From positions 26,476,001 through 26,536,000 of the forward strand of contig OZ249436.1 in assembly GCA_965235115.1 (NCBI GenBank): a stretch of 60,000 nucleotides of DNA, written 5' to 3'. The notes under the pieces were generated by a model that saw nothing but the letters and a program-made list of their open reading frames with translations, ran no database searches and was not told where the DNA came from. The stretch is from Laetmonice hystrix (Eukaryota). The number at the start of each line of letters is the position of its first letter. Positions within the stretch are counted from its first letter, which is position 1. Below, piece after piece: positions 16,098-45,400 of this stretch. The position numbers were made by a program, and so were the translations under genes.

Positions 16098-16637
16098 CTA
16101 CTTAATATCATCGTCATCTTTCTCAATGATACCAATTTTCTCCCCGACCCATTTGAATTTTGCGACTATCTCTTCTTGAATGAGCGAGAAGCACATGGAA
16201 ATAATGGCCATTCCAAAGAGCATATAGACGGCCGAAAGAATCATTTTGTACTGGTCCGTAGCATTTTCGAAGTTAGCTGCTCCCGGCACGACGTCGCCGA
16301 AGCCAATGGTTGAGATTGTCACGAAACAGAAGTAGGAGGCTTGCAGTGGCTGCCAGTTCTCCCACACCCCAAACAACAACGCTCCCATGAAGATGTAGAA
16401 GCCAATGATGGCCATTGTGATTGTAAGCGGCACGCTGATTCGTTCGTCTTCGTCTTCGTCATCGTCTTCGTCGTCGTTGAGAACGACTGGCCCGCCCTCT
16501 GTGGGCGGGAGGCCACCCTTCTGCTCGGCGTAGTCCGACTTCCAGGCCTCGGGTGTGGTGCGGCCCTTGGCTTCGTCCGAGTTGATAGATTCCACTTTGT
16601 TCTTATCTTTCCTCCGACAACATCCACAACAGCAGAC
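16098..16637 (-). CDS. K2P channel coding exon 3 (M2-M3 loop, M3, P2, M4, C-terminus)
   Basis: Acceptor TTATCTTGGATAG|GTC, then VCCCGCCRRK...ERISVPLTITMAIIGFYIFMGALLFGVWENW...SYFCFVTISTIGFGDVVPG...YMLFGMAIISMCFSLIQEEIVAKFKW...DIK-TAG. The spliced CDS is 1287 nt (~428 aa if started at the CUG). Confidence 0.97.
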   Translation of the reverse strand, partial: VCCCGCCRRKDKNKVESINSDEAKGRTTPEAWKSDYAEQKGGLPPTEGGPVVLNDDEDDDEDEDERISVPLTITMAIIGFYIFMGALLFGVWENWQPLQASYFCFVTISTIGFGDVVPGAANFENATDQYKMILSAVYMLFGMAIISMCFSLIQEEIVAKFKWVGEKIGIIEKDDDDIK

Positions 16638-16867: not shown

Positions 16868-17010
16868 CTTTGAATAGACGAACCTGAAAACGTCTGCCAT
16901 AACGTCACCAATATTTGCAAGGAATAGCAACATCAACGGGATTCCTAAAACAGCGTAGGCCATACAAACCAGGCGTCCCCAGAAGGTTTTTGGAGCGATG
17001 TTTCCGTAAC
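16868..17010 (-). CDS. K2P channel coding exon 2 (end of P1, M2)
   Basis: Acceptor CCTGCAG|GT TAC GGA completes TTIG-YGNIAPKTFWGRLVCMAYAVLGIPLMLLFLANIGDVMADVFRFVYSK. Donor is AAG|GTAGGT. The 143-nt length keeps phase with exon 1. Confidence 0.96.
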
Positions 17011-34309: not shown

Positions 34310-34838
34310 CACATAACTTCATGGGTGTGTGCACCCACACAGCGTGTGCACGTACCGCCTCACCTCCGTATCTAAAGTATTTTTATCAACAGATCCTGCT
34401 ACGGATTCTACAATAGCACTCGTGTGTCCGTCCACGGTCGACAATACAACACACTTCATGGGTGGGGGTGCCCTCGCACAACGTGTGCACGTAGGTACCG
34501 CCTCACCTCCGTATCTAAAGTACCAACAGATCCTGCCACGGATTATACAGCTCGTATGTCCGTCCACGGTCGACAATACAACACACTTCATGGGTGTGTG
34601 CACTCACACAGCGTGTGCACGCACCGCCTCACCTCCGTATCTAAAGTACCAACAGATCCTGCCACGGATTATACAGCACTCGTGTGTCCGTCCACGGTCC
34701 ACAATACAACACACTTCATGGGTGTGTGCACTCACACAGCGTGTGCACGCACCGCCTCACCTCCGTATCTAAAGTACCAACAGATCCTGCCACGGATTAT
34801 ACAGCACTCGTGTGTCCGTCCACGGTCCACAATACAAA
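34310..34838. repeat. ~128-135-bp tandem repeat (4 copies)
   Basis: ACTTCATGGGTG recurs at ~34316, 34453, 34585 and 34713. Confidence 0.92.
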
Positions 34839-34872
34839 TACATGTAGGCCTACACCTCAGCCTGTCGAGCTG

Positions 34873-35063
34873 CAGAGGCGGATTTAGGGGGGGGGGGGGT
34901 TACTGGGGTTACAACCCCCCGTTACGAAGTATTCTTTTTATTTTTTCCTGCTTGAAAGATTCACATAAAACATACACCCCGCAACCCACCCCCCTTGGCA
35001 CCCCCCCCCCCGGTTGGGTTATAAAGACGACGCAATAACAAGTGAAACCTGGATCCGCCCCTG
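34873..35063. mobile_element. Short poly-G/poly-C MITE with CAG(G/A)GGCGGAT-type termini; related fragments at ~2690-2863, ~4723-4888 and ~20615-20718
   Basis: CAGAGGCGGATTTAGG ... CCTGGATCCGCCCCTG. TSD not evident. Confidence 0.7.
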
Positions 35064-35427
35064 AGATGCTATGCGACTGAAAAGCTCCTAATTGTTTTTC
35101 ATGGCGTCAAACAAACCTGACGTGACACTTGTAGCGCCAGATTTATTTACTCTCATTGAAATACATTTGGTAGCTATTTTCAGAGCGTCGCCAATAGCGC
35201 GTAGCATTGAGTCAGGCGCCTCCCACGCCTTAAAGGAGAAGAGACTGCAGACAAACAATATTTGTGTGGTCCACGCAGACACTGTCCACCTGCACTCTCC
35301 CCATTTTGAGTTTGGACATGCCATGCGTGCTATGCCCCTATATAAAGGCCGCTAATGGTCGACACGTGAATCAGTCGTGTCACCTGAGACTGTCCCGTGC
35401 AGAACTCGTGACAAAGCCGCAATGGTA

Positions 35428-36317
35428 TAGGTCTGACCTATCGGCCGAGCAACCCGTTGACCGATCCACCGATGGGTCTGACTTATCGGCCGAGCAACCC
35501 GTTGGCCGATCCACCGATGGGTCTGACATATCGGCCGATGAGCAACCCGTTGACCGATCCACCAGTGGGTCTGACCTATCGGCCGAGCAACCCGTTGACC
35601 GATCCACCGATAGGTCTGACCTATCGGCCGAGGAACCCGTTGGCCGATCCACCGATGGGTCTGACATATCGGCCGATGAGCAACCCGTTGACCGATCCAC
35701 CAGTGGGTCTGACCTATCGGCCGATGAGCAACCCGTTGGCCGATCCACCGATAGGTCTGACCTATTGGCCGAGCAACCCGTTGACCGATCCACCGGTGGG
35801 TCTGACCTATCGGCCGAGGAACTCGTTGGCCGATCCACCGATAGGTCTGACCTATCGGCCGATGAGCAACCCGTTGACCGATCCACCGATGGGTCTGACC
35901 TATCGGCCGAGGAACCCGTTGGCCGATCCACTGATATGTCAGACCTATCGGCCGAGCAACCCGTTGACCGATCCACCGATGGGTCTGACCTATCGGCCGA
36001 AGAACCCGTTGGCCGATCTACCGAGAGGTCTAACCTATCGGCCGAGTAACCCGTTGACCGATCCACCGGTGGGTCTGACCTATCGGCCGATGAGCAACCC
36101 GTTGACCGATCCACCGATGGGTCTGACCTATCGGCCGAGGAACCCGTTGGCCGATCCACCGATGGGTCTGACCTATCGGCCGAGGAACCCGTTGGCCGAT
36201 CCACTGATATGTCTGACCTATCGGCCGAGCAACCCGTTGACCGATCCACCGATGGGTCTGACCTATCGGCCGAAGAACCCGTTGGCCGATCTACCGAGAG
36301 GTCTAACCTATCGGCCG
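35428..36317. repeat. GC-rich 45/48-bp minisatellite (~19 copies)
   Basis: Unit GGTCTGACCTATCGGCCGA(TGA)GCAACCCGTTGACCGATCCACCGATG. Confidence 0.96.
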
Positions 36318-40289: not shown

Positions 40290-41401
40290 GAGGCGGGGAA
40301 ATCCCACTTATCTCGACGTCATACCTGTCGGAAATATTCTAACATCCTGACTGCTCCATTGAAATTACCTACTCCTGACAGTGGAATATTGGACTAACTA
40401 ATATTCTAACATCCTGACTGCTCCATTGAAATTACCTACTCCTGACAGTGGAATATTGGACTAACTAATATTCTAACATCCTGACTGCTCCATTGAAATT
40501 ACCTACTCCTGACAGTGGAATATTGGACTAACTAATATTCTAACATCCTGCCTGCTCCATTGAAATTACCTACTCCTGACAGTGGAATATTGGACTAACT
40601 AATATTCTAACATCCTGACTGACTGCTCCATTGAAATTACTTACTCCTGACAGTGGAATATTGGACTAACTAATATTCTAACATCCTGACTGCTCCATTG
40701 AAATTACCTACTCCTGACAGTGGAATATTGGACTAACTAATATTCTAACATCCTGCCTGCTCCATTGAAATTACCTACTCCTGACAGTGGAATATTGGAC
40801 TAACTAATATTCTAACATCCTGCCTGCTCCATTGAAATTACCTACTCCTGACAGTGGAATATTGGACTAACTAATATTCTAACATCCTGACTGACTGCTC
40901 CATTGAAATTACCTACTCCTGACAGTGGAATATTGGACTAAATAATATTCTAACATCCTGACTGACTGCTCCATTGAAATTACTTACTCCTGACAGTGGA
41001 ATATTGGACTAACTAATATTCTAACATCCTGCCTGCTCCATTGAAATTACCTACTCCTGACAGTGGAAAATTGGACTAACTAATATTCTAAGATCCTGCC
41101 TGCTCCATTGAAATTACCTACTCCTGACAGTGGAATATTGGACTAACTAATATTCTAACATCCTGACTGCTCCATTGAAATTACTTACTCCTGACAGTGG
41201 AATATTGGACTAACTAATATTCTAACATCCTGACTGCTCCATTGAAATTACCTACTCCTGACAGTGGAATATTGGACTAACTAATATTCTAACATCCTGA
41301 CTGACTGCTCCATTGAAATTACCTACTCCTGACAGTGGAATATTGGACTTAGAAAATGTCGCCCAGGTATGACGCCGAGGTCAGTTGGATTTCCTCGTCT
41401 G
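40290..41401. mobile_element. TIR element filled by a 67/71-bp minisatellite (~15 copies, 40333-41349)
   Basis: Imperfect ~38-bp inverted ends (GGAAATCCCACTTATCTCGACGTCATACCTG / CAGGTATGACGCCGAGGTCAGTTGGATTTCC). Unit AATATTCTAACATCCTGACTGCTCCATTGAAATTACCTACTCCTGACAGTGGAATATTGGACTAACT. Confidence 0.85.
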
Positions 41402-41723
41402 TTCTAAATTATATCATGGAACCTTATAAAATTCGAACTGAGAGAAAAATGCATAAGAATGAGCCAGAAATGACCAGGTAGGGTGCATTACCCTCTAATA
41501 AATGCACTCGTTGTGGATGGTATGATGCATTTTTTACTCGGCTTGTGATAAAAATAAATAAAACTTTCTTCAAAGATAAAAAAAAAAGCTGTGAGCCCCC
41601 ATCAATCAATGATTTGTTGTGTAATTATTCCATGCGAGTTTGAGTCAGTTAGCTTAACGGTCTGACAATTTGTTTCTATCATAATGAAACCAGCCTTACA
41701 GTGGAACGGGAAAGGAGACTCAC

Positions 41724-42327
41724 CAATAGTTGTAATCACGGTGACTGAGAAGAGCAGGGCCCCGGCAAATGACCACCGATATCCAGGGCCGTTGGGCTCA
41801 CCCATAATGCTACAATTCTTGCCATCATATCCGAGATCCAGAACAATTCCGCGATACTTCCGAAGGAGTTTCGTTGTCTCCGTCATGAAAAATTCCTTTG
41901 TATCTTCGTCCAGCCCCAGGTTTGTTACCACCTCCCACATTTTGTGTGTTGTCTCATTTTCCGCTGGGTTGTATTTTTCTTCCGCGAGAATACACTCTTG
42001 TTTCTCGTTGGTTTGTTCTAGATGTCTGAATATAAAACCACCAGCTACAGCATATGCTATAACCATACCACTAAGGCCGATGTGTGAAAAGATAAATTTC
42101 AAAGCCCTTTTGCAGCAGTTTCGATTGGAACTGCGTTTTTCATCTCCGGTCGGGTCGGCGACGTCGCATTCCGCGTCGCGACTATCGCGATCAATGCGGT
42201 CTTCCCCTCGTCCAGTTTGGCGTTCCTTTTCATCTTCGGAGGATGATATATCCCGTGGATTCTCCGGATCTGTTGTCGCATTCTTCCGAAAGCGAGTGAC
42301 CGAGGCAGTATCTTCCTTTGGATCCAG
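41724..42327 (-). CDS. K2P (two-pore-domain) potassium channel, TWK-7/KCNK18-like, coding exon 1 (N-terminus, M1, cap, P1 up to TTI-G); start placed at the putative CUG 42327
   Basis: The frame reads ...NCCKRALKFIFSHIGLSGMVIAYAVAGGFIFRHLE...YDG...WSFAGALLFSVTVITTIG and ends at a phase-1 donor G|GTGAGT (41724/41723). It is open upstream to TAG 42351-42349. The 5' boundary is uncertain because there is no in-frame ATG. Confidence 0.93.
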
Positions 42328-42441
42328 GGTGACAACGTGATTCTCTAACTACTTATACTGCTACACAGCGACCAGTCAGATTCATCCACCTTGAGGGTCC
42401 ACAGTCTGCAACTCTCTGAAATTAAAGGGTAAAAAAGAGGG
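42328..42441 (-). promoter_or_regulatory. Strong splice acceptor (42416/42415) and 5'UTR part of the first coding exon, containing a 10-codon uORF (42385-42353)
   Basis: CCCTCTTTTTTACCCTTTAATTTCAG|AGAG. There are four stops in the channel frame between 42415 and 42349. The uORF reads ATG AAT CTG ACT GGT CGC TGT GTA GCA GTA TAA. Confidence 0.7.
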
Positions 42442-45400
42442 TTGTTATTAAACATCCGGTCTGAAAATGCACTCCATGAACTTAAACAGGAGGGACTTCC
42501 CCTTCACGATACCATACCTCAAGGAGATCGTCACAGTACCTCCGATGTGTTCAGAAAATTAATAACATCCTATAAAGTATACGTTACAAATTTCATTTCC
42601 AACGCACGATGGCGTCCCATGTAGGTCCTAATAAGTTGTAAATGCAATGTACCTGATCCAGCGAAGAAATGATTCGGTTACACTCTTAAGGAAATCACCA
42701 TATCCACTAACATTTTCCAAGTCACTAGCCAAACGACAAAATGGCTGCTGTTCCATCCAGAAACTAAAGGACACCACCAAACAACGACCTCAGAATACTT
42801 TCTATCATCAATATTAAAGGACTATTGATCGAGGCAGTCATGCAGCTATTGTCTGTTTCCTTGAGCGCCACTGACCGCCACTTGGACATGTATCGTCTTT
42901 TTGAACCAGCATCAACAATATTTAGAAGTGATATGAATAGATAGTACGCTAAAGTCGTCGTAAAAGATCAAAGGTCTTTTCTATGGAACTGACTCCAGTC
43001 ATAAAAGAAAAAATGTAGAGTGTATAGGTTATAATGTAAATTAAGAACTTTTGGAAGCTAAACTAAAGTAAATTATTCATGTACTGCAATGCCTTTGACA
43101 AACACGCGTCTGCCTACTATGACGTATACTTACATACAATCATATTGTCAATATTTAAAGGCCAAGCATGAACCTATGAGATGGAATTCTGCATTGGACC
43201 GTCACTCAGGATATTGTCAGAGAACTATATTCAAACCGTGACAAACATTTTAGTACACCCTTTCACCGTTTCTTGTTTCTGTCATATAGAGTGAAAATTC
43301 TCCTGGGTTTCTTTGCTGCATGGATGAGGGCTCAATATACGGCTACCTCATGCCTTGGTGTTCACACCCTTTCTGTCTTCTACTGCGGGGTTACATGAGA
43401 GGGCAGACACTACCCCCTACTGTTCAATATGATAGCTTCGTACGTGCCAATCTTCTCCGAGAGAAACACCAGATCGGTAGCTGTCAGGCCAATAATTTGT
43501 CTCGGGCAGACACGTATCAGAACGATCCATTTCATGGTAAAATATAGGACAAGTGGCATCTCTCACGGAAATTGATTATATGACGTTAGTGGAGCGTAAG
43601 TCAATCTACTCTCCTAACGAACCTGTTGAAATACACAGAAAGTGGAAAGGTAAATTCTACTGCTGTTGTTAAGGCCCCTTGTTGTTATGAACATATTAAC
43701 ATCTTACATCAACTTACTGTAACAGAACATGATTAGTCGCTCTCTTTGGAGTGAAATCATCGAGGAGCAGTCGACTTCAAACGTTTCAAGTTTGTCTGCG
43801 GCTGTTTGCCTTTTCTCCGGAAGTACCAATATATTACCAATTTCAGCAATGTATATTTTATTAGTCAGCCTTGAGATGCAATTATAGTCAGTGTTCTTTG
43901 TGTTTACATAGCTAAATTGTCCAGTGTTTCATAACCGATTGCAAAACTTTCATACCCTATGTAAAATTCCCTGTATGTGAAAACTACCGTAATAGGCCTA
44001 TATAAAAAATATTTGCCCGTATATAGGGCCTAAAACTCCCGCAATGTGTAAAAATTCTGCCCGTATGTAAAAAATCTTCGTTCCCCCAGTATGTAAAATT
44101 CTGCCAGTATAGGGACCTAGAGGCTGTCAAATTGATTTTTACCCGTATACAGGCTATGTAAAATATCTCCCCTTAGGCCTAAATGTAAAAAATACCGACG
44201 AATATAAAATTGAGAAATCAACAGCTGGTTCACGCGTCAATAAAAATACATTATAAATTAATAAACTAATAATTAATTTGTTTTGGTCATGATGACATCC
44301 CGCAAACGAAAAGCTCCTGTAGTTGAAGGGCCACCCCTTACACCTAAACAAGCGCTCCGGCCACCCGCGGCGCTTGACCCCCGCCAGAGGCCAGTCAGCT
44401 AGCCCGTGTGTGTCAGCCAGCTGCTGTCGATCGGCAAATCAAGGTCTGAAACACACCTTGATAACGGTACCAGTGACGCTTTAATATTTGGAGGGATGAT
44501 CGTAGTTGGGGTCCGGTCCAAGTTTCGAAATACTCAATTTTGCAAGGTTTTGTGAGCAGTTCAAAATCAGCTCTCTCGAGTGATTGCCCGTAGGTTAACT
44601 ATGGCGAACTCCGGTCGTCATGTAGGCGCTTGCACCGAGTTTCAAAACGAGGCAGCATAGCAACCCGCAACGGAAAACGGTCTATGAGAGGAATCCAAAT
44701 GTGGGGGGAATGGCTGCAGAAGGAACTTTAACAGATGAATCTTATGAATAGTGAAAACAACACCCATTACGGTCATTCCTATGAGATGAGCTATACCGAC
44801 AACAATGCACCTCCATGCAATATTCGAGTAACCATGCAATAGATGCCGCCTGAGCTCTGGTTCTTGCATACACATGATCAACCGTGCAAGATGGGACATA
44901 AAACTGTCGTTCGCGCCATGGCAAAGGGCTCCGAAATCTTCCGCCATATAACATCGGGTTGCGATCAAACAAACGTCGAGTATGCAGGAGGAGGTCTATT
45001 GATCAAACCGGCCGTGACATACACCACTCTTGGCCCAGCTGGCTGATTCCGGCCGAGGGAGATGACAACCTAACAGCTTGCCGCTTCCTATGCCCACAGT
45101 TGCCGTGCCATTCTCTGGGACTCGGCCCATCAGGAACAGGTCGAACACTGTAAGCTATACATTGTACTTCCGTGAACGAATGATCGTTTTCTAATCGGCT
45201 CTGCTGCGGCAATTCCACCCCCCCCCCCCCAATTTATAGGATGGCATTTCTATCTTCATGATTTTCTTACTCATGAACTTATTACTTTAACCCCAGTCCC
45301 ACCAAAGCCGATCGTACTACGTTCTATGCCGCTCTATCAAGACCTGAAATTTATTTTAAGTCGTGATGAATCGTGATGAAATAATGACAACCCGAAGACC

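Follow-up and report, generated by a model that had tools for sequence, protein, structure and literature searches.

A CUG codon as the probable sole start of an annelid K2P channel, in a subfamily that probably has an old near-cognate start

The K2P channel gene on the reverse strand of a 60,000-nucleotide stretch of the Laetmonice hystrix genome (hereafter the window, whose coordinates are used throughout) most likely starts translation at the CUG codon at 42327, which would be the only start of the gene. The subfamily to which it belongs probably has an old near-cognate start, and this upstream start of the orthologues is both a stronger and a newer part of the result than the CUG start. 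Obligate CUG initiation had been proposed in a sequence-only reading of the window; it is now backed by identical contigs from the same sample, by the weakness of the alternative acceptors and by a start-like position above the AUG in orthologues, while the hairpin invoked in its support has fallen away.

From its sequence, the gene appears to be a working, single-copy annelid channel (Table 1). TTIG and YG meet across exons A and B, TIGFG lies in exon C and the product has four transmembrane helices, all features of the K2P class; a search with an orthologue profile matched the TRAAK, TREK-2 and TASK structures, and exon A searched alone against Pfam gave no match. The product from CTG 42327 has a predicted length of 428 aa, with no stop or frameshift in the 428 codons. 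Because the three exons are intact, both pore motifs are present and exon C is 86% identical to P0183 (153/177, with 95% similarity), the gene is likely under selection. Its closest relative is represented by P0183 for exon C and, for exon A, by P0051 (80% identical over 123 columns; tree support 99, in an orthologue tree made by a quick method and with many open forks), and these two entries probably sit on one contig. The best named relatives are the annelids Dimorphilus, Lamellibrachia, Capitella and Owenia, and the channel belongs to the invertebrate TWK-7/18-like group, not to the TREK group. A search of the L. hystrix genome returned at least three matches: the gene itself and two distant paralogues (41% and 32%), both of which have ATGs; a nearer copy was not among these matches.

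Table 1. Features of the K2P channel gene and of its 5' region (window coordinates).
Feature	Position	Strand	Basis or remark
Exon A (leader, N-terminus, M1, cap, pore 1 to TTIG)	41724..42415	-	phase-1 donor at 41723
Exon B (GYG of pore 1, M2)	16868..17010	-	with exon C completes both pores
Exon C (M3, pore 2 GFG, M4, stop TAG 16100-16098)	16098..16637	-	PF07885, 54.9 bits (cut-off 22.5)
Strong splice acceptor (pyrimidine tract, CAG end at 42416)	42416..42440	-	exon A from 42415
Out-of-frame 10-codon uORF, AUG 42385 in weak context	42353..42385	-	ends 25 nt before CTG
Last of four in-frame stops, TAG	42349..42351	-	frame reading
Proposed start CTG 42327-42325 in GTC ACC CTG G, A at -3, G at +4	42324..42333	-	context
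Motif V-T-R-F-R ([IV][TA]R.R)	42286..42300	-	in orthologues above first AUG, beginning at start-like codon
Four out-of-frame AUGs (42281, 42233, 42169, 42143)	42141..42281	-	between CTG and M1 Met
Conserved NCC...FSHIGL, first half of M1	42064..42120	-	ends at first in-frame AUG 42066

The letters of the region are reliable as far as the sampled individual is concerned. Single contigs from three runs (X1-X3, depth 44-58) span it, with no ATG at 42327 and no substitution or indel in 42060-42415; the runs come from one sample, possibly the source of the assembly, their contigs are not independent of that individual, and heterozygous sites are collapsed in them. An assembly error, either a one-base indel near 42349 that hides a continuous frame or a CTG misread from ATG, would fit the fact that another phase is open from the 42416 acceptor to 42347. 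With three runs letter-identical to the assembly, this reading is largely refuted and hardly worth retaining.

The frame itself is as the sequence-only reading had described it. The acceptor at 42416, with 14 of 17 pyrimidines and no AG in -20..-3, is the best among the 24 AGs listed in the region. Downstream of it the channel frame holds four stops (42384 TGA, 42378 TGA, 42363 TAG and 42351 TAG) and then stays open without an ATG for 94 codons, up to the ATG at 42066 (GL-S-G-M-VIAY), a Met which profile alignment puts within the M1 helix of TRAAK/TREK-2. Within exon A, no in-frame AUG thus lies between the upstream stop and the essential conserved region. In orthologues, an AUG usually stands 15-70 codons above FSHIGL, which means that the part above the M1 Met has to be translated; and since NCC...FSHIGL is conserved upstream of that Met, translation must begin above it. 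CTG 42327 is the eighth codon past the TAG stop and is a near-cognate codon in frame and in strong context: GTCACC-CTG-G, one mismatch from GCCACC before the start codon, occurs once in 119,980 window positions, namely at this very codon, and ACC-CTG-G twice. The context alone proves little, because near-cognate codons in such surroundings are common by chance (about 1.2 with a purine at -3 and G at +4 are expected per 87 codons); from the last stop down to V-T-R-F-R, CTG 42327 is accompanied by a single other near-cognate codon, an AAG in poor context. Codon usage does not discriminate the start: in a test built on 6,480 codons from 26 channel loci of the same genome, the extension scored 0.122 bits/codon, above 99.85% of the background, and frame +1 (0.094) and the leader (0.130) score nearly alike.

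Initiation further down, at the M1 Met 42066 or at the weaker near-cognate codons ATA 42249 and ATT 42195, with or without some use of the CUG, would gain from the G at both -3 and +4 of 42066, from the G at -3 of ATA 42249 and from the shortening of TREK N-termini by alternative initiation described in excerpts of PMC8396510. However, all three codons lie below the out-of-frame AUG 42281, which has A at -3, a start at 42066 would remove the conserved NCC...FSHIGL half of M1, and the kept V-T-R-F-R at 42300 would be left unexplained. We consider such a lower start very improbable.

That motif has counterparts in orthologues. Annelid orthologues carry, in frame and upstream of their first AUG, a motif [NKT]-[IV]-[TA]-R-x-(R). 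Of the 55 proteins in which FSHIGL is preceded by 60 or more residues, 5 carry [IV][TA]R.R in that part. Four of the five (P0001, P0002, P0005 and P0225) fall in the tree group of the window, on three separate branches; in the fifth, a read-through of 1165 residues, the match is as far as 685 residues off. The strict motif is absent from P0007, P0067 and P0093, which belong to the same tree group and have long N-termini. As background it occurs 7 times in 119,996 codons, and 1.3% of shuffles of the window's own peptide contain it (P=0.013); since its definition was made with the data already in view, these statistics are only indicative. The 16 other loci for which DNA is available comprise two with the motif in the channel frame (L004 and L006), one with an AUG form (L008) and 13 in which it is partial (L005, L018) or absent (11 loci). 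The codon before the first residue of the motif starts with A in all seven carriers besides the window, against a background of 0.30; three of these were seen in DNA and four were read from N or T residues, and they represent about five independent lineages. This A is kept although the residues encoded differ (N, K, T, I), and 11 of the 12 AUG contexts from relatives likewise have A at -3. Pattern scans of prokaryote and viral contigs gave 15 and 47 matches and no relative.

Several loci depart from this picture. Exon A of L010-L016 is cut short after AYVP, apparently by an extra intron; the AUG is included in six of the seven, and these have an in-frame stop 3-21 codons farther up and lack the motif, which shows that not every relative carries the extension. 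L005 reads N-W-T-R-F-V-S-R-G-A-T-T-D (L005:2759-2800) directly after a good acceptor and above its AUG, with Trp at the motif position, which resembles V-T-R-F-R-K-N-A-T-T-D of the window; no near-cognate codon in good context is present there.

Several lines of evidence place a start at the motif. (i) L004, a spliced mRNA, shows an in-frame TGA, then seven codons, then ATA in GTC AAC ATA ACG CGA, with no AUG between; its AUG comes 18 codons past the ATA. (ii) The motif site of L006 reads GTC AAA ATA GCC CGT AAA AGG, and its sister paralogue L008 (support 95) has ATG CCG CGG AAA AGG, with a stop three codons above. This ATG is the only upstream in-frame ATG of L008, which is without a downstream AUG, and it stands 363 nt above a landmark shared with L006, versus 360 nt. 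The register that pairs the ATA of L006 with the ATG of L008 is the best of 660 both by DNA (26/42) and by BLOSUM (p=0.005 when the best among 220 in-frame registers is taken), and another register reaches 23/42; in BLASTP the two proteins align from residue 3 (E=1e-6), with the lower Met of L006 opposite Val. (iii) The codon before the motif starts with A, as described above. The layout of the L004 mRNA, the match between L006 ATA and L008 ATG and the A-starting codon together suggest that the motif marks a start site.

In the window, the motif itself has no start-like codon (GTC after TCG), and the CTG lies nine codons above it. The sequence-only reading had called for a conserved ACC-CTG-G in orthologues: the preceding context was found, since GTC-A[AC][AC] precedes CTG 42327 as it does the ATA in both L004 and L006 (a match expected by chance at about 1.7% over 87 codons), but the codon there is ATA, not CTG. 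Homology between the CUG and the AUA therefore rests on this context and on a weak match of the leaders of the window and L004, 16/20 without gaps around the uAUG and 6 nt off the CTG-ATA diagonal (p=0.015 unanchored, 0.006 anchored). The leader of L006 gave no such ungapped match to that of the window. With gaps allowed, the leader alignments to the 16 loci reached p=0.047 for L004, for which 43 of 593 background segments were as good, and p=0.023 for L015, which scored equally; neither is significant after 16 tests. Coding-type conservation, with the motif, synonymous codons and the AUA/AUG exchange, is seen for the subfamily at a site nine codons below the CTG of the window.

The gene call of P0051 starts at M-FSHIGL, a start taken in only 3 of the 17 entries with that Met, which hints that P0051 too lacks an upstream AUG and that the AUG may have been lost before the two species split. 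Three other proteins, P0078, P0081 and P0096, are called from a Met at or inside M1 and may be further AUG-less cases or calling artefacts. It is tempting to speculate that A-T-T-D-P at 42267-42279 of the window is a remnant of the T-T-I-[DN]-M context of a lost AUG; its P codon and the AUG of L004 are equally far, 156 nt, above the KRALK landmark.

Translation could instead begin in an upstream coding exon that bears an ATG and is spliced into one of the weak AGs at 42349, 42345, 42343, 42316 or 42312, the extension then being ordinary coding sequence and the CTG a leucine codon. This is the main rival reading, which we judge unlikely; an exon of this kind would need one of these AGs for the motif to stay in frame. 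More than 17 kb of upstream window could house such an exon, and several relatives look compatible with one: the good acceptor of L005 lies directly above its partial motif, in frame and in phase 1, L006 has a second, pyrimidine-rich AAG in frame, P0002 and P0225 are stop-free through acceptor-like sequence above the motif, and the NCBI model of Lamellibrachia (P0005) reads the motif from an upstream Met. As L005, P0002 and P0225 are open from acceptor-like sequence and P0005 reads in, some lineages may use an ATG-bearing upstream exon, and the L005 lineage may do so because it lacks a near-cognate codon in good context. However, P0005 is a poor model (it has a repeat insertion and ends at TTIG), the full-length orthologues P0003 and P0006 are called with short N-termini, the spliced L004 mRNA has its in-frame stop above the motif, and the ATG of L008 sits at the matching place just below a stop. 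The candidate AGs of the window are also poor: located 67-104 nt below the strong acceptor, they are AAG or GAG or have three to five other AGs just upstream, whereas each of the six acceptors that homology fixes in this genome is a YAG whose -20..-3 stretch is free of AG (a set of n=6, from which in-exon TVGYG/DIGYG matches, 7/12 pattern matches, were left out). Acceptor phase varies among orthologues, with phase 2 and stops in the window and L006 and phase 1 in L005, which is what a 5'UTR intron would lead one to expect. Finally, blastn of the leaders of three relatives against the upstream window yielded nothing (best E=0.14). The CUG thus continues to be the preferred start. Two other sources of an AUG were considered and dropped: a mini-intron linking the uORF AUG to the channel frame, given the poor donors of the leader, and an AUG brought by a spliced leader to the strong acceptor, which would presumably read the uORF frame and not the channel frame.

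Upstream AUGs recur in the leaders of the subfamily (L004, the window, L006 and L008). The L004 mRNA has a uORF with the frame offset of the one in the window; it precedes the ATA by 52 nt, against 58 nt to the CTG in the window. Start-stop uORFs, in which an ATG is followed by a stop, are also found, one in frame just above the ATG of L008 (L008:2097-2123) and two above the ATA of L006 (L006:2484-2660).

If the gene simply lost its AUG, it might be a young pseudogene, or the sampled individual might carry a null allele. The end branch of the window is longer than that of P0051 (0.24 vs 0.10), neither the downstream AUG nor a start-like codon at the motif is present, and a second allele with an ATG is conceivable as contigs collapse heterozygous sites. 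Against this, the 428 codons are free of stops and frameshifts, identity to P0183 is still 86% and similarity 95%, the frame has stayed open while out-of-frame AUGs accumulated, there is no nearer copy among the own-genome matches, and P0051 may be AUG-less as well. We therefore attach very little weight to a decayed or null gene and retain a translated channel started at the CUG.

The sequence-only reading had also proposed that a hairpin at 42300 helps initiation. The hairpin exists on paper (-7.6 kcal/mol), but it is no better than expected from shuffled sequence: among 200 shuffles of 42345-42230, 180 reach an equally good fold (z=+1.13), and so do 28-84 of 200 for four 50-nt segments. In structure-assisted non-AUG starts of the TRPV6/PTEN-beta type, a stable hairpin lies about 14-18 nt downstream of the start; here the stem begins about 30 nt downstream of the CTG. 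The hairpin was thus dropped as an initiation helper. It overlaps the motif, whose codons vary synonymously among orthologues, so the conservation of the motif looks protein-level.

From the sequence, the frame and their conservation we infer use of the 42416 acceptor, initiation at the CUG, low expression and a possible trafficking role of R-x-R, and the following scheme may be suggested. Scanning ribosomes would mostly pass the weak upstream AUG 42385, and a fraction of them would initiate at the CUG, aided by the A at -3 and the G at +4, yielding the channel of 428 aa, whose N-terminal stretch of 87 codons precedes the M1 Met. If a ribosome misses the CUG, one of the four out-of-frame AUGs would catch it; protein truncated at M1 should accordingly be scarce or absent, and output should be set by the stringency of start-codon selection; the scanning model on which this is based is outlined in excerpts of PMC3105428 and PMC5666671. 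Non-AUG initiation may in this way limit the expression of the leak channel.

The annelid ancestor would have had two in-frame starts, a near-cognate one (AUA, as in L004 and L006) giving M-[AT]-R-x-R and, 18-30 codons downstream of it, an AUG. Both would have persisted in some lineages. In L008, the upstream start would have become AUG and the lower AUG would have been lost; in the lineage of the window, the lower AUG would have been lost and initiation would depend on a CUG nine codons above the first residue of the motif. The R-x-R of the extension resembles arginine-based ER retrieval signals. We thus propose, tentatively and as a possibility that falls somewhat short of probable, that in a K2P subfamily spread across the annelids a near-cognate start has persisted for hundreds of millions of years, making an M-[AT]-R-x-R isoform, possibly with an ER-retrieval signal, beside an AUG isoform that lacks this N-terminus, and that lineages later fixed one state: AUG in L008, CUG only, with a uORF and AUG traps, in the window.

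Conserved non-AUG starts have been catalogued in mammals and are chance finds in flies. A CUG-started annelid K2P channel would likely join the known class of non-AUG-started genes exemplified by TRPV6, R3HCC1 and TEAD1. The sequence-only reading had likened it to TREK-1/2; alternative initiation does occur there, but it is AUG-to-AUG leaky scanning, and the parallel is loose, TRPV6 and R3HCC1 being closer precedents. According to excerpts of PMC8396510, alternative initiation sets the length of the N-terminus of TREK-1 and TREK-2 (K2P2.1, K2P10.1) and affects conductance. The likeness is that the length of a K2P N-terminus is fixed at initiation; the annelid channel, however, is TWK-7/18-like and lies outside the TREK group.

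TRPV6 has an ACG start above its canonical AUG, an N-terminal extension and low expression (PMC12837008, and listed in PMC3105428, both in excerpt). It is likewise an ion channel with a non-AUG start and corresponds to the state with two starts proposed for L004 and L006. In contrast to TRPV6, which keeps the downstream AUG and a stable stem-loop, the annelid K2P gene lost the AUG and its hairpin is not significant. Genes started solely at a non-AUG codon include, in excerpts of PMC3105428 and PMC5666671, R3HCC1 and UFSP1 (CUG, both predicted), EIF4G2 (GUG) and TEAD1 (AUU). The argument made there is of the same kind as ours: in R3HCC1, a CUG in near-perfect context follows an in-frame stop and precedes several out-of-frame AUGs before the in-frame AUG that comes next, and in UFSP1 the first AUG lies beyond a needed residue. 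These four are vertebrate soluble proteins whose codon is kept across species, whereas the annelid codon appears to change (AUA, AUG, CUG). A potassium-channel precedent is KCNN4, with a predicted non-AUG extension (excerpts of PMC3105428), and invertebrate precedents come from Drosophila, with 27 annotated non-AUG genes, 11 of them with CUG, among which are named Fmr1, ewg, Eip74EF, ChAT and Akt1 (excerpts of PMC4528330); these are conserved near-cognate starts in neither a K2P channel nor an annelid. The literature search, which covered few subscription papers and excerpts of the fly study (PMC4528330), whose Table S3 may list channels, found neither a K2P channel nor a nuclear gene of an annelid with a non-AUG start; the excerpts of PMC7515701 concern TASK-3 mRNA but not a non-AUG start.

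If the subfamily has indeed kept such a start, leak current would be tuned by start-codon stringency, and since a leak channel sets the resting potential, a stringency-dependent start would couple translation state to excitability. The family would then form a natural series for a non-AUG start turning obligatory, and its members with two starts, with a start converted to AUG and with CUG only would allow comparative tests of how obligate non-AUG initiation arose. At a practical level, gene callers truncate these channels within or just before M1.

Repeats surround exon A. The 24.7-kb intron that follows it contains a 67-bp tandem repeat (14.9 copies, 96% matches, 40333-41349) and, at 34316-36317, tandem repeats of 128 bp (4 copies) and 45 bp (19.4 copies), the 45-bp array having long open frames on both strands. 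Upstream of exon A, 43925-44400 is a high-copy dispersed repeat with many variants, in which contig depth rises to thousands.
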